NCBI GenBank assembly: GCA_003486305.1
Contig: DNGJ01000424.1
Location: 5,760-21,648, forward strand
Direction: 5' to 3'
Source: Cyanobacteria bacterium UBA11371
GTDB taxonomy: Bacteria; Cyanobacteriota; Cyanobacteriia; Cyanobacteriales; Aerosakkonemataceae
Length of the DNA stretch: 15,889 bases
The stretch's first letter is position 1; every line of letters starts with the position of its first letter. A model generated the notes under the pieces. It saw only the letters and a list, made by a program, of their open reading frames with translations. It ran no database searches and was not told the DNA's origin. A program made the position numbers and the translations under genes. Shown one piece after another: positions 6,853 to 15,837 of the stretch.

Positions 6853-8013
6853 ATGACACAAGATCAACCTCAACAGCCAGAACCACAACAACAGATACCA
6901 CCCACCACACCGGCACCCACACCGACACCCAAAGCACCCGTGTCGCAGTCGGGGAAAGCGGTGCAAACAGTGGTTCAAACCCTGGGAGAAACGTGGAAAA
7001 CCGTCCAACCTGTGCTAAAAGAAGGCACGGTTAAAACTTTACGCGGCACAATTTGGGTGTTACAAGGCGCGGTGAATCAACTCGAAGGACAACAAAGAGC
7101 GCCAATTCAGCTTCCGGTGGATACCCTACCTTCGGCTGCGACGCTTCCCCCAGAAATGCCTGTATCTATTCCAGGGGATGCAACGCCGCCAGTCACAACT
7201 AAACCTGCTGTACCTGCAAAACCAGCTTCTCAACTGTCGAATGCGTTGGCGATCGCGCGCACTGTGATTATCACCCTGTGGCAGTGGTGGAAAGCCGCTA
7301 TTGCGAAACTACGCAGCCTGTTGCCCGAGTCGGTGAAGCAAAAACTGCCCAATAATGATATTTTGTCGGGTGCGATCGCAGCCATCTTGCTCGTCTTTTT
7401 CTGGTTAAATTCCTCCTCCTCACCCCCAGCAGTCGCTAAAGTTCCCCCCGAAATTTCAACCCCAGCAGCGGAAATCGAAGTATCTCCGGAAGTTACCCCA
7501 ACACCGGAAGTTACCCCACTACCAGAAATTAAAGTATCTCCGGAAGTTACCTCAACAGGGGAAATTAATGTATCTGTGGAAGTTACCCCACCAGCAGAAG
7601 TAAAAGTAACCCAGGAAGCGAAACCACCTGTGGTTGAAACCCCACCCGAATTAACCGCACCCAAACCATCTAAACCTGTAGCAATCGTTCCACCGCCTCC
7701 CCCAGTTTTAACCCCAGAGCAAAAATTGCTCGCCGAAATTCAAAATAAAATTGCTGAAATTACCAAAGAATCGGCGGATGGGTTAATTCAATCTGTTCAA
7801 GCGAATTTTAAAGCCGGTCAGCTAACTGTTAAAATTAGCGACGATTGGTATAACTTTGATGTTGCTAAACAGGATAAATTAGCCGCCGATATGTGGAATC
7901 GGGCGCAGGAATTGGACTTTAGCAAAGTGGAAATTACCGACACTTCTGGCACGTTGATAGCCCGATCTGCCATCGTTGGGTCTAATATAATCGTTTTGAA
8001 GCGTCAGATGTAA
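6853..8013 (+). CDS. Proline-rich single-pass membrane protein with tandem P-E-V-T repeats and a conserved-looking ~110-aa C-terminal domain. Function unknown.
   Basis: ATG 6853 is preceded by AAGGGAG. Pro/Gln/Thr-rich N-terminus. Predicted TM helix ILSGAIAAILLVFFWL. Repeats EVSPEVTPTPEVTPLPEIKVSPEVTSTGEINVSVEVTPP. PPPPP linker. Followed by a strong terminator hairpin. Confidence 0.55.
   Translation: MTQDQPQQPEPQQQIPPTTPAPTPTPKAPVSQSGKAVQTVVQTLGETWKTVQPVLKEGTVKTLRGTIWVLQGAVNQLEGQQRAPIQLPVDTLPSAATLPPEMPVSIPGDATPPVTTKPAVPAKPASQLSNALAIARTVIITLWQWWKAAIAKLRSLLPESVKQKLPNNDILSGAIAAILLVFFWLNSSSSPPAVAKVPPEISTPAAEIEVSPEVTPTPEVTPLPEIKVSPEVTSTGEINVSVEVTPPAEVKVTQEAKPPVVETPPELTAPKPSKPVAIVPPPPPVLTPEQKLLAEIQNKIAEITKESADGLIQSVQANFKAGQLTVKISDDWYNFDVAKQDKLAADMWNRAQELDFSKVEITDTSGTLIARSAIVGSNIIVLKRQM
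7478..7600 (+). repeat. Imperfect tandem nucleotide repeats (units like CCGGAAGTTACCCCAACA / GTATCTCCGGAAGTTACC) that encode the PEVT/EVSPEVT peptide repeats of the proline-rich membrane protein.
   Basis: Direct reading of 7441-7620. Confidence 0.6.
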
Positions 8014-8034
8014 TAGGGAACCCATACACCCAAA

Positions 8035-8067
8035 AGAAACCCGGTTTTTTCAAAAAACCGGGTTTCT
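8035..8067. terminator. Intrinsic-terminator-like hairpin between convergent genes. Perfect 16-nt arms AGAAACCCGGTTTTTT / AAAAAACCGGGTTTCT. The T-run and the A-run sit inside the stem, so it could act in both directions.
   Basis: Starts 22 nt after the stop of the proline-rich-protein gene. Perfect inverted repeat with the T tract on the + strand and the A tract on the opposite arm. Confidence 0.55.
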
Positions 8068-8144
8068 TAATAATAACCTCACCGCTTCTTGGCGTCGCGA
8101 ACATTATTAATGTTATACTGTTTTCCCATCAATGGGAAAAACTT

Positions 8145-8202
8145 GGGGCGGGTTTATTTAAATTGTTTGCTTGTATCAAACGTTATTGGTAAAACCCGTC
8201 CC
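8145..8202. repeat. Inverted pair of the GGGGCGGGTTTA / GGTAAAACCCGTCCC motif. Together they form an 11-12-bp stem (one mismatch) with a ~31-nt loop.
   Basis: Direct reading. A member of the TAAACCCGCCCC family, which has at least 7 copies in the window. Confidence 0.7.
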
Positions 8203-8336: not shown

Positions 8337-8394
8337 GGGGCGGGTTTAATGAGATCTCTCATGGTTCCACAGTATGGTTGGTAAAACCCGCCCC
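8337..8394. repeat. Second inverted pair, GGGGCGGGTTTAA / GGTTGGTAAAACCCGCCCC: an 11-bp perfect stem. The loop contains the palindrome GAGATCTC.
   Basis: Direct reading. Confidence 0.7.
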
Positions 8395-8413: not shown

Positions 8414-8434
8414 CCATTACCAATTACCAATCCC
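8414..8434. repeat. Heptamer tandem (CCATTACCAATTACCAATCCC). It overlaps the 3' end of nanE and encodes its last residues, GIGNW plus the stop.
   Basis: Direct reading. The reverse complement GGGATTGGTAATTGGTAATGG encodes G-I-G-N-W-stop. Confidence 0.7.
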
Positions 8435-9106: not shown

Positions 9107-9166
9107 GGGGCAGGTTTTACCAATAACCATTAAACGCCAACAGACGATTAAAATAAACCCGCCCCC
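9107..9166. repeat. Two more copies of the same family upstream of nanE. GGGGCAGGTTTTACCAATAACC (9107-9128) is the reverse complement of the GTTATTGGTAAAACC(C/T)GCCCC consensus. AAATAAACCCGCCCCC is at 9151-9166.
   Basis: Direct reading. The first copy encodes the spurious MVIGKTCPY N-terminal extension of the nanE ORF. Confidence 0.7.
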
Positions 9167-9183
9167 GTTCGGGCATTAGCAGA

Positions 9184-9231
9184 ATTAGCAAGCTTGCAAT
9201 TAGCAAGCTTGCAATTAGCAATTACCAATCC
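9184..9231. repeat. 15-bp tandem repeat ATTAGCAAGCTTGCA x2 (each unit contains the 10-bp palindrome GCAAGCTTGC), followed by the degenerate unit ATTAGCAATTACCAATCC, which ends in the AATTACC-family heptamer.
   Basis: Direct reading. Located between the stop of the histidine-kinase gene (9237) and the nanE start. Confidence 0.75.
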
Positions 9232-11730: not shown

Positions 11731-14700
11731 ATGCATCGGATAGCCGCCACCCCTGGAGGTTGGAATCCTCAAACTGAAGGTGTCATCTTTGTCGAGCAAA
11801 CCCCTGCTCCTATAGTCATTCTGACTGCTGCCGACACCGATATTCAAACCCTCGCGGCGGCTGTCACCCAGCTACCCGATGACTTTGGAGCGTTGCGGGT
11901 GGTCAATCTATTGCAGTTGCAGCAACAGCTAACCATCGATACCTATGCAGAACTTGTTCTGACATCCGCACGGGTTATTATCCTGCGCCTATTGGGGGGA
12001 CGCGCTTACTGGTCTTATGGATTGGAAATCGTACAGGAAACGGTACGGCAAACCGGCGCGGCACTGATTGTACTCCCCGGAGACGATCGCCCCGACCCCG
12101 ATTTACTCGATCTTTCCACGGTTTCTCTATCAAAGGTCAACCAGGTATGGCGCTACTTCACCGAAGGCGGCATCGAAAATTGCGTCAACGCCCTGAAATT
12201 TGTCGCCGATATCTGCCTGGGACACTCTTACAACCCACCCCCACCCCAAGAAGTGGCGCGCCTGGGGCTTTATTTGTGGCAGAGGACTCCAAGAGCAGGT
12301 GACTCCGGGTGCAATTACGGTGTGGGTTTGACCGATAACCAGACAACACAAAATTACAATGTAACTAAACCCGCCCCGGTGAATGAGGCGGCGATCGCAA
12401 ACAAGGTCGGTATTCTGTTTTATCGGGCGCATTACTTGGCGGGAAATACACGCCCAATTGATGCACTTTGTCAAGCTTTAGCGGCACGAAAATTAGAACC
12501 CGTGCCGGTATTTGTCTCTTCCTTGCGCGACCCGGATGTACAAGCAGAATTATCTCAATATTTCCAGCCGCCTAAAACAGAACCCGTTCAACTGATACTC
12601 AACACCACCAGTTTTTCGGTTTCAGATTTTACAAGGATTTCCCATTGGGCGCAAACCTCTGATTTGGCGGCAAAAATGACTGATGCTGTGCCCCTACCCC
12701 CCGTTTTGCATTCCCAGGGAAAGCCCTCTGAACGAGGCACAATCGACAATCTTGATGTTCCAGTTTTGCAAGTTATCTTCAGCGGCGGCACTGTAGAACA
12801 GTGGTCAGCCCAGTTTCAGGGGCTTTCACCCCGCGATATGGCGATGAATGTGGCGCTACCAGAGGTAGATGGGCGAATCATCACCCGTGCAGTTTCTTTT
12901 AAAGCGGTACAAACCCAAAATTCTCAGTTAGAGACGGATGTAGTAATTTATCAGCCTCAGTTAGACCGGATAGAGTTTGTCGCCGATTTAGCGGCTAACT
13001 GGGTGCGACTGCGGCAAACTCCCCCCCAAAAGCGCCGAATTGCTCTAATTTTGGCAAATTATCCCTGTCGCGATGGCAGACTCGCGAATGGTGTGGGACT
13101 CGATACCCCTGCAAGTTGTGTAGAAATTCTCAAGGCGCTGCAACAAGCTGGATACTGGGTGGAAAATATACCAGCTACGAGTGATGAACTGATGCAACGT
13201 TTAACCGCTGGGGTGACCAATGACCCGGAAGGACAACAATTGCGACCCGCAATGCAGCAGTTATCTTTAAAGGAATATCAAGAGTATTTTGCTACCTTGC
13301 CAGTTGAGGTGCAGAAAGAAATATGCGATCGCTGGGAAATCGGTAATGGGTCATTCGATTCCCAGGCGGAGCCTCTTAACGAGGGTAATAGAGAAGAAAA
13401 CCAATCACCAATTACCAATTACCAATTACCCATTCCCGGCATTCAACTAGGCAATATTTTTGTCGGAATTCAACCGAGTCGGGGTTACGATCTCGACCCG
13501 AGTTTAAACTACCACGCCCCGGATTTAGAACCGCCCCATCATTATTTAGGCTTTTATTATTGGGTGCGAAAACATTTTGGCTGTCATGCGATCGCTCATA
13601 TCGGCAAGCACGGCAATTTAGAATGGCTACCGGGTAAAAGTGTCGCCCTATCGAATAAATGTTATCCCGAAATCGCCTTGGGCGCTTTGCCCCACCTCTA
13701 CCCATTTATTGTCAACGACCCAGGCGAAGGTTCAGCCGCCAAACGTCGCGCCCAAGCGGTTATTATCGATCACCTCACCCCACCGATGACCAGGGCAGAA
13801 TTATACGGCCCGCTGCAACAATTGGAAAGTTTAATTGATGAATATTACGAAGCACAAAGTTTAGACCCCTCCAGGCTTCCAGCAATCAGAACGCGCATCA
13901 CCCAGCTAGTAGCCAAAGAAAACTTACATCAAGACTTGCAAATCGCTAATCCCCAAGAAAACCAATTACCAATTACCCAACTTGACGGCTATCTTTGCGA
14001 ATTAAAAGAAGCCCAAATCCGCGATGGATTGCATATTTTTGGGCAATGTCCCCAAGGACGACAACTGCGGGATTTGATAGTTGCGATCGCTCGTCATCCC
14101 GGAGTAGGTCGTCTCGGCTTAACTCGCGCCTTAGCTAAAGATTTCGGTATAGATATTGACCCCCTTACCGCTGATATGTCAGCAGTCATTAACTCGTTAA
14201 GAGGCTCAGCCTGGGAACGAGATCCCAGAGGCTCCGCCTCGCTTATAGCAGTACCATTTACTAAAAAATGTCGCACCATCGGCGATGTTGTTGAACTTCT
14301 GGAAGAACATGCAGCTAAATTAGTCGAACAACTAATATCTGACCGCTTCCAGCACACCAGCACACCCCCATCTTTAAACGCCACCCAACGCGAACTAGAC
14401 TGGATACGCTCCCACCTCCTCCCCGCATTGCAACAAACCGATCGAGAAATTATCAACTTGTTGCGCGGACTCGATGGGCGCTTCGTCCCCCCCGCCCCCT
14501 CTGGCGCACCCACGCGGGGACGCCCGGAGGTTTTACCCACTGGTCGCAATTTTTACTCTGTTGATATCAGGGGAATTCCCACCGAAACCGCTTGGGATTT
14601 AGGAAGAAAGGCAGCAGAAGCGTTAATCGAACGCTACGCCCAGGATAATGGGGAGTATCCAAAAGCACTTGGCTTATCCGTATGGGGAACATCCACGATG

Positions 14701-15837
14701 CGGACTGGCGGCGACGACATTGCAGAAGCATTGGCGTTAATCGGCGTCCAGCCGGTATGGGATGGGCCGTCGCGGCGGGTGGTAGATTTTGAAATATTGC
14801 CAGTATCGATTTTGGGGCGTCCGCGCGTAGATGTGACGTTGCGAATTTCCGGCTTTTTCCGGGATGCCTTCCCGAATTTAATCGATTTATTCGATCGAGC
14901 AGTTGCAGCCGTGGCGGCGCTGGATGAGACGGCGGATAGCAATCCTTTGGCGGCTGCTGTGCGCCAGGAAACCGAGATGTGGATAGGTGCTGGGGTGGGG
15001 GAAGAACAGGCATTAGTGCGATCGCAATATCGTATTTTTGGCTCAAAACCTGGTGCTTACGGTGCTGGATTGCAAGGTTTAATCGAATCCCAAAATTGGA
15101 CAGACGAACAAGACTTAGCTCGTGCCTATATTAACTGGAGTTGTTACGCTTATACATCGGGATTTGGTAATAGGTCATCCCATTCCCAGGCGGAGCCAGG
15201 GAATGAGGGTAAACAAAACCAATTACCAATTACCAATTACCCATTACCCAGCGCCGCACCCGAAGCTTTTGAGCAGCGACTGCGCCAAATGGAAATAGTA
15301 TTGCACAATCAAGATAATCGGGAACACGACTTACTAGATTCGGATGATTACTATCAGTTTCAAGGCGGTTTAACCGCATCGGTGCGCGCATTAACCGGCA
15401 AAAATCCTCAAACCTATTTCGGCGATAATTCTATGCCGAGTAATCCCAAAGTTCGGCAGTTAAAAGAAGAAATTGCCCGCGTGTATCGTTCGCGCGTCGT
15501 TAATCCTAAATGGATTGCAGGAGCGATGCGCCACGGTTACAAAGGTGCGTTTGAAATCGCAGCAACGGTAGATTATTTATTTGCCTACGATGCAACGGCT
15601 AACTGCGTAGAAGATTTTATGTATGAAGGAGTTGCAGAAGCATATTTATTTGCTCCAGATGTACAGGCATTTATTCAAGAGAAAAATCCTTGGGCATTGC
15701 GAGATATGGCGGAGCGTTTGTTGGAAGCACACCAGCGGGGTTTGTGGCAAAAAGTTGACCCAGAAATGGTGGATAAATTGCGAGCGATCGCCCACCAAGC
15801 CGAAGCCGACATAGAAGCTACAAATTTTAAATTGTAA
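11731..15837 (+). CDS. cobN: Cobaltochelatase subunit CobN (CobN/Mg-chelatase H family). Carries in-frame short-repeat insertions.
   Basis: 1368 aa, with typical CobN blocks: IVILTAADTD, FYRAHYLAGN, HIGKHGNLEWLPGK, GEGSAAKRRAQAVIIDHLTPP, LRISGFFRDAFPN. It is longer than typical CobN (~1250-1300 aa as recalled), which fits the repeat-encoded insertions. Confidence 0.85.
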   Translation: MHRIAATPGGWNPQTEGVIFVEQTPAPIVILTAADTDIQTLAAAVTQLPDDFGALRVVNLLQLQQQLTIDTYAELVLTSARVIILRLLGGRAYWSYGLEIVQETVRQTGAALIVLPGDDRPDPDLLDLSTVSLSKVNQVWRYFTEGGIENCVNALKFVADICLGHSYNPPPPQEVARLGLYLWQRTPRAGDSGCNYGVGLTDNQTTQNYNVTKPAPVNEAAIANKVGILFYRAHYLAGNTRPIDALCQALAARKLEPVPVFVSSLRDPDVQAELSQYFQPPKTEPVQLILNTTSFSVSDFTRISHWAQTSDLAAKMTDAVPLPPVLHSQGKPSERGTIDNLDVPVLQVIFSGGTVEQWSAQFQGLSPRDMAMNVALPEVDGRIITRAVSFKAVQTQNSQLETDVVIYQPQLDRIEFVADLAANWVRLRQTPPQKRRIALILANYPCRDGRLANGVGLDTPASCVEILKALQQAGYWVENIPATSDELMQRLTAGVTNDPEGQQLRPAMQQLSLKEYQEYFATLPVEVQKEICDRWEIGNGSFDSQAEPLNEGNREENQSPITNYQLPIPGIQLGNIFVGIQPSRGYDLDPSLNYHAPDLEPPHHYLGFYYWVRKHFGCHAIAHIGKHGNLEWLPGKSVALSNKCYPEIALGALPHLYPFIVNDPGEGSAAKRRAQAVIIDHLTPPMTRAELYGPLQQLESLIDEYYEAQSLDPSRLPAIRTRITQLVAKENLHQDLQIANPQENQLPITQLDGYLCELKEAQIRDGLHIFGQCPQGRQLRDLIVAIARHPGVGRLGLTRALAKDFGIDIDPLTADMSAVINSLRGSAWERDPRGSASLIAVPFTKKCRTIGDVVELLEEHAAKLVEQLISDRFQHTSTPPSLNATQRELDWIRSHLLPALQQTDREIINLLRGLDGRFVPPAPSGAPTRGRPEVLPTGRNFYSVDIRGIPTETAWDLGRKAAEALIERYAQDNGEYPKALGLSVWGTSTMRTGGDDIAEALALIGVQPVWDGPSRRVVDFEILPVSILGRPRVDVTLRISGFFRDAFPNLIDLFDRAVAAVAALDETADSNPLAAAVRQETEMWIGAGVGEEQALVRSQYRIFGSKPGAYGAGLQGLIESQNWTDEQDLARAYINWSCYAYTSGFGNRSSHSQAEPGNEGKQNQLPITNYPLPSAAPEAFEQRLRQMEIVLHNQDNREHDLLDSDDYYQFQGGLTASVRALTGKNPQTYFGDNSMPSNPKVRQLKEEIARVYRSRVVNPKWIAGAMRHGYKGAFEIAATVDYLFAYDATANCVEDFMYEGVAEAYLFAPDVQAFIQEKNPWALRDMAERLLEAHQRGLWQKVDPEMVDKLRAIAHQAEADIEATNFKL
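13334..13438 (+). repeat. Composite short interspersed element, copy A, inside cobN in frame. It has the core TCCCAGGCGGAGCCTC...GAGGGTAA and a 3' tandem heptamer array (CCAATCA CCAATTA CCAATTA CCAATTA CCCATTC). It encodes IGNGSFDSQAEPLNEGNREENQSPITNYQLPIP.
   Basis: About 80% identical at the DNA level to copy B, including the 5' flank GGTAAT(G/A)GGTCAT. The element ends resemble imperfect terminal inverted repeats (GGTAATGGG ... CCAATTACC). Confidence 0.75.
13962..13982 (+). repeat. Short tandem heptamer array (CCAATTA CCAATTA CCCAACT), preceded by GAAAACC as in element copies A and B. In frame inside cobN; encodes NQLPITQ.
   Basis: Direct reading. Same heptamer as at 13401-13435 and 15219-15246. 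Confidence 0.7.
14185..14240. repeat. Partial, inverted, degenerate copy of the cobN element core. The reverse complement of 14199-14218 is TTCCCAGGCTGAGCCTCTTA. It is followed by a direct fragment TCCCAGAGGCTCCGCCTC, and together they form a near-palindrome.
   Basis: Sequence comparison with copy A. The opposite-strand frame here also reads SQAEPLNE, which shows the similarity is at the DNA level. Confidence 0.6.
15160..15249 (+). repeat. Composite short interspersed element, copy B, inside cobN in frame, in the same orientation and same reading frame as copy A. It encodes FGNRSSHSQAEPGNEGKQNQLPITNYPLP.
   Basis: GGTAATAGGTCATCCCATTCCCAGGCGGAGCCAGGGAATGAGGGTAAACAAAACC followed by (CCAATTA)x3 then CCCATTACCC. 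Aligns with copy A. Confidence 0.75.

Follow-up and report, generated by a model that had tools for sequence, protein, structure and literature searches.

Repeated in-frame segments in the cobN gene

The window analysed here is a 15,889-nt stretch of contig DNGJ01000424.1 from Cyanobacteria bacterium UBA11371, and the feature under study is a set of repeated segments inside its cobN gene, which encodes the large subunit of cobaltochelatase. The gene is an open reading frame (ORF) of 1368 aa at 11731-15837 on the plus strand, and it hosts all the copies compared below. Its protein matched the solved CobN 9uk9 in the Protein Data Bank (PDB) at E = 0, its homologs carry the precomputed Pfam assignment PF02514, and identity to named CobN proteins was 86% at most. 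Homology extended over the full length, and the invariant columns were kept in an alignment of 18 CobN sequences, consistent with the identification as CobN. Cyanobacterial CobN proteins ranged from 1247 to 1412 aa. Because one identical CobN protein was found in three independent assemblies, among them the metagenome-assembled genome (MAG) 'Cyanobacteria bacterium UBA11369', an assembly artefact was excluded for the cobN repeats.

A sequence-only reading of the window had described two copies of a segment, A (13334-13438) and B (15160-15249), about 80% identical over about 90 bp, and had placed their likeness at the DNA level. Both statements were borne out. The alignment of copies A and B had 76 identities in 90 positions (84%) and a single 6-nt gap, and its score was 95, compared with 12 at most for any other 90-nt window of cobN; without gaps, 54 nt were in common at 80%. 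The core TTCCCAGGCNNAGCCNGGGAA, allowing up to 3 mismatches, matched only at 13359, 14197 and 15183, giving 5 strand-hits against 0.01 expected. The stretch 13359-13383 was inverted relative to 14193-14217 and 96% complementary to it over 25 nt, and the opposite strand of the latter spells SQAEPLNE, as had been noted for this third copy. All copies are read through in the cobN frame, as proposed for A and B, and the predicted peptides of the inserts include SFDSQAEPLNEGNR, GSAWERDPR and SSHSQAEPGNEGK. The repeat observation in cobN is therefore real and far beyond chance. The window DNA also contains abundant GCGATCGC sites.

The core is one hairpin of a dispersed two-hairpin REP unit

The cobN core TTCCCAGGCRGAGCCTGGGAA-CGAG is palindromic, and it is hairpin 2 of a two-hairpin repetitive extragenic palindromic (REP) unit. 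The unit is about 52 nt long and consists of hairpin 1 (NNGGCRGAGCCN'N'), a spacer of 10-12 nt, hairpin 2 (TTCCCAGGCRGAGCCTGGGAA) and a CGAG tail. The family was scanned in one genome per species with the 25-mer pattern TTCCCAGGCNNAGCCWSKKAAYGAG, and at least 120 stretches matched. By record title, 50 of them were cyanobacterial, 54 planctomycete, 6 from Desulfobacterota, 5 'Alcaligenaceae' MAG contigs, 2 'Promethearchaeota' MAG contigs and 3 without an assignment. The matches listed include cultured cyanobacteria (Oscillatoria PCC 10802, Scytonema PCC 10023 and Microcoleus strains) and the planctomycete isolate Rhodopirellula sp. SM50, and some of these genomes held several loci (at least 4 in Oscillatoria PCC 10802 and at least 7 in Thermoguttaceae SMAG_U14240). 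Among plasmids, the family was found in a single Dolichospermum plasmid, in an intergenic position with no transposase nearby.

As judged from the matches listed, hairpin 1 lay upstream of hairpin 2 at a fixed distance in 122 of 143 instances. The outer pairs of hairpin 1 covaried (GC 77 / CG 17 / AU 4 / UA 1, and AU 92 / CG 11), and pairing was kept in 96.8% of cells, compared with at most 46% when the partners were slid. Canonical units folded as two hairpins with z = -5 to -6. At many loci of cyanobacteria and planctomycetes, inverted units stood tail to tail, 80-130 nt apart, as doublets resembling REPINs (REP doublets forming hairpins), and the doublet at L086 folded at -63.9 kcal/mol with z = -14.5. 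Most family sites (184 of 202, about 91%) were not in long open frames; the other 18 lay inside such frames, some of them ORF-calling artefacts. A search of the window and six loci with Rfam at gathering thresholds found no family over the element, only tRNAs and a CRISPR repeat, and a full-text search of the searchable literature returned no match to the core sequence.

A REP-associated tyrosine transposase lies between inverted units

In three loci, L090 (a Gemmatales MAG), L038 and L016, an ORF of 177 aa was located exactly between inverted units. The L090 protein matched the NCBIfam model NF047646, 'REP-associated tyrosine transposase' (RAYT), with 87.6 bits against a cut-off of 80, and the RAYT motifs E(N/H)HLH (an HxH motif), WQ and YxHxNP were conserved. 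The name comes from NCBIfam only, since the protein had no Pfam match and no PDB sequence match. Three further loci, L141, L142 (an Acidobacteria MAG) and L143, were picked by RAYT protein similarity only, and high-scoring units abutted the gene there as well, with L143 cut at one end. REP units thus abutted the RAYT gene in 6 of 6 loci examined. More than 7,700 RAYT homologs were found at E <= 1e-10, many of them labelled RayT by the Joint Genome Institute (JGI).

Such an arrangement is shared with known REP/REPIN-RAYT systems, such as the REPs and bacterial interspersed mosaic elements of E. coli with TnpA-REP and the REPINs of Pseudomonas, in which short, dispersed, imperfect palindromes frequently form inverted doublets; here a gene of about 177 aa of the HUH-Y1 type has inverted units on both sides. 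The family differs from classical REPs in its two-hairpin unit. By its motifs, the RAYT resembles RAYT group 4 / TnpA-Y1 subclass 2.4 (NH[IFV]H, WQ, YIxNNP), which is common in Cyanobacteria and scattered over many phyla and classes (PMC6006769, PMC5581495). In subclass 2.4, REPs are found in frame even inside the transposase gene itself (PMC5581495, PMC6006769).

Most contigs with this RAYT were very short (0.6-5 kb), which fits assembly breaks at the REP/RAYT region, and MAG copy numbers are probably underestimated. Canonical REP units were also seen, together with a RAYT fragment, in two loci from the 'Promethearchaeota archaeon' MAG (L010 and L023, coverage about 0.4); these contigs are probably bacterial and mis-binned, and they are not evidence for the family in archaea.

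Three REP copies in cobN differ in preservation

The window copies were scored with a covariance model of the REP unit built from 107 units. Copy C, at 14191-14242 on the minus strand, is one complete unit with 42.7 bits and E = 3.6e-9 over model positions 1-52. It consists of hairpin 1 GAGGCGGAGCCTC, a 10-nt spacer, hairpin 2 and CGAG, is translated on the plus strand as RGSAWERDPRGSAS, and is without heptamers. The sequence-only reading had called it an inverted, degenerate copy; inverted it is, while degenerate it is not, because it is the most complete of the three and matches the whole family model. Copy B (15172-15207, plus strand) comprises a spacer AGGTCAT-CCCA, hairpin 2 with no mismatch at 15183-15203 and a TGAG tail, and encodes SHSQAEPGNE; it matched the model at 15166-15209 without hairpin 1 (35.2 bits, E = 2.6e-7). 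Copy A (13359-13383, plus strand) is a decayed hairpin 2 with a CGAG tail (TTCCCAGGCGGAGCCTCTTAA-CGAG), has 3 mismatches and encodes SQAEPLNE, and its model match at 13361-13385 reached 10.5 bits. The orthologs of copy A in two relatives, L002 and L003, showed 1 mismatch to the family pattern and scored 26-27 bits.

In folding, copy B (z = -3.4) has kept its hairpin, and copies A (z = -1.3) and C (z = -2.3) have lost the pairing of hairpin 2, which confirms that the window copies are decayed. They are also singletons and not doublets. A candidate degenerate hairpin-2 copy (GCATTCCCAGGGAAAGCCCTCTGAACGAGG) at 12688-12738 on the plus strand was rejected as a further cobN copy, with a non-significant score of 6.5 bits (E = 2.6). 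In the source lineage, REP copies were found in cobN only, within the 23.6 kb scanned. Over about 80 kb of clade DNA (the window, L137 and L002-L004), significant REP matches were likewise confined to cobN.

The element sites are filled and empty in close relatives

Three syntenic loci, L002 (Microseira sp. BLCC-F43), L003 and L004, were compared with the window at the DNA level. The core at site A is filled in the window, L002 and L003 and empty in L004, with the total loop length unchanged at 98 nt. Site B is filled in the window and L002 and empty in L003 and L004, with a net gain of 36 nt in the window and 33 nt in L002. Site C is filled in the window (net +48 nt), empty in L002 and L004, and occupied by two tandem copies in L003. 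The presence/absence patterns of A, B and C are therefore not the same between relatives.

In the protein alignment, every element site fell in an indel-rich stretch between invariant blocks, and these were the most variable columns. At sites A and C the loops of the solved CobN 9uk9 are shorter, and site B (window residues 1147-1178) falls between two of its aligned blocks. These results agree with the proposal of lineage-specific insertions, as the segments lie in variable loops with filled and empty sites among relatives of 82-86% protein identity.

The cobN of L003 showed an event of its own at 12434-12629, where an 87-nt segment with a whole REP unit has undergone in-frame tandem duplication. 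The copies scored 68.1 bits each, and the duplicated segment contains a perfect 29-nt palindrome (CTCGTTCCCAGGCTCAGCCTGGGAACGAG) and yields the peptide ..FPGSAWERDPRGSASLTPPPF.. twice.

Heptamer arrays are separate from the REP core

Tandem Repeats Finder (TRF) detected five heptamer arrays in the window. Three are ACCAATT arrays in cobN, all on the plus strand: 5.0 copies at 13400-13434, encoding PITNYQL and varying in copy number between relatives; 2.4 copies at 13961-13977, without a REP; and 4.4 copies at 15218-15248, an array that is present too in relatives without copy B. The other two are intergenic, at 8416-8431 and 9183-9229. The units seen were AATTACC, AATTAGC and CATTACC. Heptamer arrays outside cobN were also found in L002, L003 and L004, against a shuffle expectation of 0.17, and heptamer arrays were present at both site A and site B of each of the four genomes. 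The array near 13962 had been taken for a heptamer-only remnant of the repeated segment; it is an independent array, at which relatives differ by exactly 21 nt, or three heptamers.

The imperfect terminal inverted repeats (TIRs) that the sequence-only reading had assigned to the segment, GGTAATGGG...CCAATTACC, turned out to be AATTACC heptamers. They were seen at empty sites, in the REP-free array at 13961-13977 and in intergenic DNA across the four syntenic loci. The left TIR GGTAATGGGTCAT, GGTAAT-GGGTCAT at 13342-13354 on the plus strand left of site A, consists of heptamer-like units in inverted orientation, and units of the same kind (GGGTCAT and GGTAATT) were present in L004, which is without the REP core. 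Because arrays occur in intergenic DNA and units occur in the core-less L004, the heptamers are independent of the core and form a tandem repeat family unrelated to it, like the short tandemly repeated repetitive (STRR) sequences.

Cyanobacterial STRR heptanucleotide tandem repeats were reportedly described by Mazel and colleagues in 1990, and Vioque is said to have found an STRR inside the RNase P RNA gene in 1997. The window arrays are like STRR heptamers in being tandem 7-nt units that are dispersed, occur in filamentous cyanobacteria and can sit inside genes. AATTACC and AATTAGC are not known to be among the three classical STRR sequences. Three units of 7 nt make 21 nt, which gives 7-aa periodic peptides. 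In 18 of 120 CobN homologs, lineage-specific heptamer repeats in the DNA have given rise to tracts with an exact period of 7 aa, such as QESGVRG, NQGQMTN and LPTTHYP. In and out of cobN, AATTACC-type arrays had nearly all one orientation relative to cobN over about 70 kb of syntenic DNA, and this uniformity may reflect a strand (replication) bias.

Short tandem repeats were also observed beside REP units of other loci. In 13 of 130 instances the 3' CGAG end had tandem repeats of 7-9 nt behind it, compared with 0 of 130 control windows 500 nt away (loci with such repeats were L005, L008, L020, L048, L049, L052, L066, L071, L089, L092, L100 and L116), and many of these repeats were seeded by the unit's own GGAACGAG. 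This suggests from sequence that repeat arrays may arise or expand beside REP hairpins.

Copies A, B and C bear traces of probable exchange within the gene

Copies A and B share flanks that do not belong to the family, GGTAAT-RGGTCAT-YCSA upstream and GGTAA downstream, together with the same loss of hairpin 1. In its empty state, site B already has GGTAAT and heptamers. The sequence-only reading had treated B as a separate insertion. The common flanks outside the REP unit make it more likely that B was copied from A inside the gene than that it was an independent hit, and a copy from A via heptamer homology would explain the common orientation and frame of the two.

Copies A and C in the window share GCCTCTTAA, where the orthologs of both read GCC(A/T)GGGAA. 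The change from GGG to CTT (CTCTTAA) is specific to the window, being found in A and C and not in the L002 or L003 orthologs. This shared derived 3-base change is best explained, on the sequences compared, as a putative gene conversion between inverted copies. The borders of site C were without a direct repeat, and no target-site duplication (TSD) was evident. The GGTAAT/GGTAA repeats at A and B are derived from heptamers and pre-existed at the empty B site.

In-frame REP insertions occur in other proteins and probably need no insertion bias

None of the frames in the conserved parts of the REP unit contains a stop codon, and all six were open in 55 of 117 units (47%), compared with about 7% expected. 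A bias of the element for frame-preserving insertion, as suggested earlier, was rejected as unnecessary, because the unit is stop-poor and its sites are mostly extragenic. The preserved frame is best accounted for by a selective filter against insertions with a frameshift, a stop codon or a position in an intolerant loop, and such a filter would be sufficient.

In-frame REP units were found in MenC (Microcoleus), NFACT (an Oscillatoriaceae MAG), a PMT-family protein, an AAA protein (Hormoscilla) and a planctomycete radical-SAM-AMMECR1-Memo fusion. In 4 of these 5 cases the unit lay between Pfam-matched domains, and in the PMT-family protein it lay after them. In the NFACT gene of L066, tandem repeats come after the unit, likewise in frame. 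A more distant cyanobacterium carries an independent in-frame REP (TQAEPGDLHSQAEPGNE) in a different loop of its CobN homolog (P0085, 69% identity), at about residue 794. The hydrophilic frame (E)AEPL..SQAEPGNE was used in most of the cyanobacterial genic cases.

Intragenic in-frame REPs have already been reported (Di Nocera et al. 2013, PMC3733652), also inside tnpA-REP genes (Quentin et al. 2018, PMC6006769). The reported cases are alike in that units lie inside ORFs of known proteins with the frame kept, some genes have two insertions, and flexible loops or linkers are presumed to tolerate them. The cobN case is thus a known kind of event, an in-frame intragenic REP, and not a new mobile element. 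It differs in that a single biosynthetic gene holds one REP in three copies together with a second element and heptamer arrays, with signs of intragenic copying and gene conversion.

Other small repeats offer partial parallels. Rickettsia palindromic elements (RPEs), a classical analogue to which PMC3733652 refers as background and which Ogata and colleagues described in 2000, are reportedly 100-150 bp long and inserted in frame in functional genes, where they are said to add surface peptide segments. They too are palindromic repeats inserted in frame, but they differ from the element here in being confined to Rickettsia, with no RAYT link established and no sequence relation. Elhai and colleagues reportedly described in 2008 small dispersed repeats (SDRs) of Nostoc, very small repeats of filamentous cyanobacteria. 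The element here resembles SDRs and cyanobacterial miniature inverted-repeat transposable elements (MITEs) such as Nezha in being very small and in its occurrence in filamentous cyanobacteria, but no TIR/TSD architecture of a MITE of the DDE type was seen in it.

Interpretation of the cobN segments and alternatives

We consider it highly probable that the cobN segments are relics of REP units from a REP/REPIN family that flanks a RAYT elsewhere, standing beside unrelated AATTACC heptamer arrays. On this interpretation, a RAYT acting on single-stranded DNA would have placed one or two units in cobN in an ancestor of the clade, and the survivors would be insertions that were in frame, had no stop codon and fell in permissive loops. 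The copies would then have spread and been homogenised inside the gene by ectopic recombination, B arising from A via flanking heptamer homology and A and C exchanging the 3-base change, with the hairpins presumably now decaying. The heptamer arrays would resize by slippage, in which 21-nt steps keep the frame and single 7-nt steps could offset out-of-frame insertions.

Several points weigh against this interpretation. The RAYT link is shown only outside cyanobacteria, because no RAYT was found by tblastn in 50 cyanobacterial 8-kb loci, no cyanobacterial names appeared in homolog searches or a cluster look-up, and the plasmid tblastn gave no cyanobacterial match. The two tagged super-families of classical REPs have the foot GTAG or CGTC (PMC3733652), and the family here has CTCG on one strand and CGAG on the other. 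In the source lineage, REP copies were seen nowhere but in cobN within the 23.6 kb scanned. Copy A alone is weak against the family model (E = 0.26), and its recognition depended on orthologs that are better preserved. Conversion (A to B, and A with C) was inferred from four sequences only. Finally, residues 450-1368 of CobN were modelled with AlphaFold from 46 homologs at a mean pLDDT (predicted local distance difference test) of 53 and a pTM (predicted template modelling score) of 0.30, values too low to judge the surface exposure of the loops.

The segments had been explained in the sequence-only reading by a single MITE-like composite of 90-100 bp with imperfect TIRs, which transposed several times into cobN with an intrinsic frame-preserving bias for loops. 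The roughly 90 nt common to A and B with their flanks, their same orientation and frame, and the direct repeats GGTAAT / GGTAA(T/A) that bracket a 36-nt insert at A and B would suit such an element. However, the putative TIRs are heptamers that also stand at the empty B site of L003 and L004, at the core-less site A of L004, in REP-free arrays and in intergenic DNA, while at least 120 loci in other genomes have the core but no heptamers, with a two-hairpin architecture of its own and a RAYT, and copy C is heptamer-free. A metagenome scan with the composite prefix GGTCATNCNATTCCCAGGC returned only 12 chance matches, a weak point, as the scan also missed known JGI carrier contigs. What stands of the proposed mobile element is the dispersed family of the core; the composite is very unlikely, and its filing as a DDE-type MITE is not supported, because the core is a hairpin from a REP family associated with RAYT genes and no matching insertion sequence was seen. 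It is rather unlikely, though less so, that A, B and C are each independent RAYT-mediated REP insertions, without copying or conversion inside the gene, and that their flanks are alike owing to a local subfamily of REPs or to a favoured target near heptamers. The frequent position of REP 3' ends beside short tandem repeats elsewhere (13/130 against 0/130 controls), the REP with in-frame tandem repeats in NFACT of L066, and the differing presence of A, B and C between relatives are consistent with it. But A and B have in common a spacer (GGTCATYCSA), a missing hairpin 1 and a 3' GGTAA, all foreign to the family consensus, the GGG-to-CTT change is confined to A and C of the window and not found in the L002/L003 orthologs, and no other REP was found in about 80 kb around cobN in four genomes.

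Two functional explanations were also weighed, and both are extremely improbable. One holds that SQAEPxNEG and PITNYQL are peptide motifs with a function in CobN whose duplication and retention reflect protein-level selection, in line with the preserved reading frame and with the recurrence of the (E)AEPL..SQAEPGNE frame in genic insertions. Against this, the same DNA lies mostly outside genes, on both strands and in several phyla, copy C, read from its other strand, gives an unrelated peptide, and the segments are absent from close relatives and solved CobN proteins, at sites that are the most variable alignment columns. The other holds that the hairpins act in the cobN mRNA through stability, pausing or regulation, since REPs are thought to be RNA elements in some contexts (PMC3733652) and copy B still folds; yet hairpin 2 pairing is gone in A (z = -1.3) and C (z = -2.3), orthologs lack the copies and no Rfam family matches.

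A second element and other features of the window

A second element of 58-59 nt is inserted in frame in another variable CobN loop at 12319-12378 on the plus strand. It has the TIRs GGGGCGGGTTT / AAACCCGCCCC, is 73% identical to 9113-9168 and encodes the peptide ..GVGLTDNQTTQNYNVTKPAP.., and it is common to the window and L004 and absent in L002 and L003. Intergenic copies of this element, with 11-nt inverted ends GGGGCGGGTTT...AAACCCGCCCC, were located at 8145-8202, 8337-8394 and 9107-9165, and heptamer arrays follow two of them.

The ORF at 6853-8013 contains an 18/36-nt tandem repeat at 7459-7638, which yields a periodic peptide rich in Pro, Glu, Val and Thr; its protein has no recorded Pfam match in the syntenic loci (386-393 aa). 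Two intergenic structures, a perfect 20+20-nt palindrome at 4303-4342 (GTTTGTGTAGCGGGTGCGTT/AACGCACCCGCTACACAAAC) and a 17+17-nt hairpin at 8034-8068 (AAGAAACCCGGTTTTTT/AAAAAACCGGGTTTCTT), look like bidirectional terminators.

Implications for REP families and loop evolution

The 25-nt hairpin 2 is near-invariant across phyla, while the RAYTs fall to 49-57% identity. A more far-reaching reading, which we regard as a long shot, is that this REP-RAYT family is unusually conserved and moves between phyla, perhaps with a real propensity for coding loops, and that its ends seed or attract 7-9-nt repeats. Adjacent heptamers could then buffer frameshifts, since a change by one 7-nt unit moves the frame by one position and would rescue out-of-frame insertions. 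If this were true, REP activity would be connected with how cyanobacterial heptamer repeats originated and how loops evolve in large enzymes.

The analysis defines a REP family, spread over several phyla, with a two-hairpin unit and a CTCG/CGAG foot and with a link to a very large RAYT family. Stop-poor REPs of this kind inflate ORF calls and give spurious "paralogous peptides" (SQAEPGNE, FPGSAWER, VPRQSLGTR), and annotation pipelines should recognise them. Specific to the cobN case is the combination in one gene of three REP copies, the second element at 12319-12378 and three heptamer arrays, with traces of intragenic copying. It provides a clean, checkable example of how selfish hairpin repeats, together with simple tandem repeats, can make the loops of a large conserved enzyme longer and more varied while the enzyme itself is spared.

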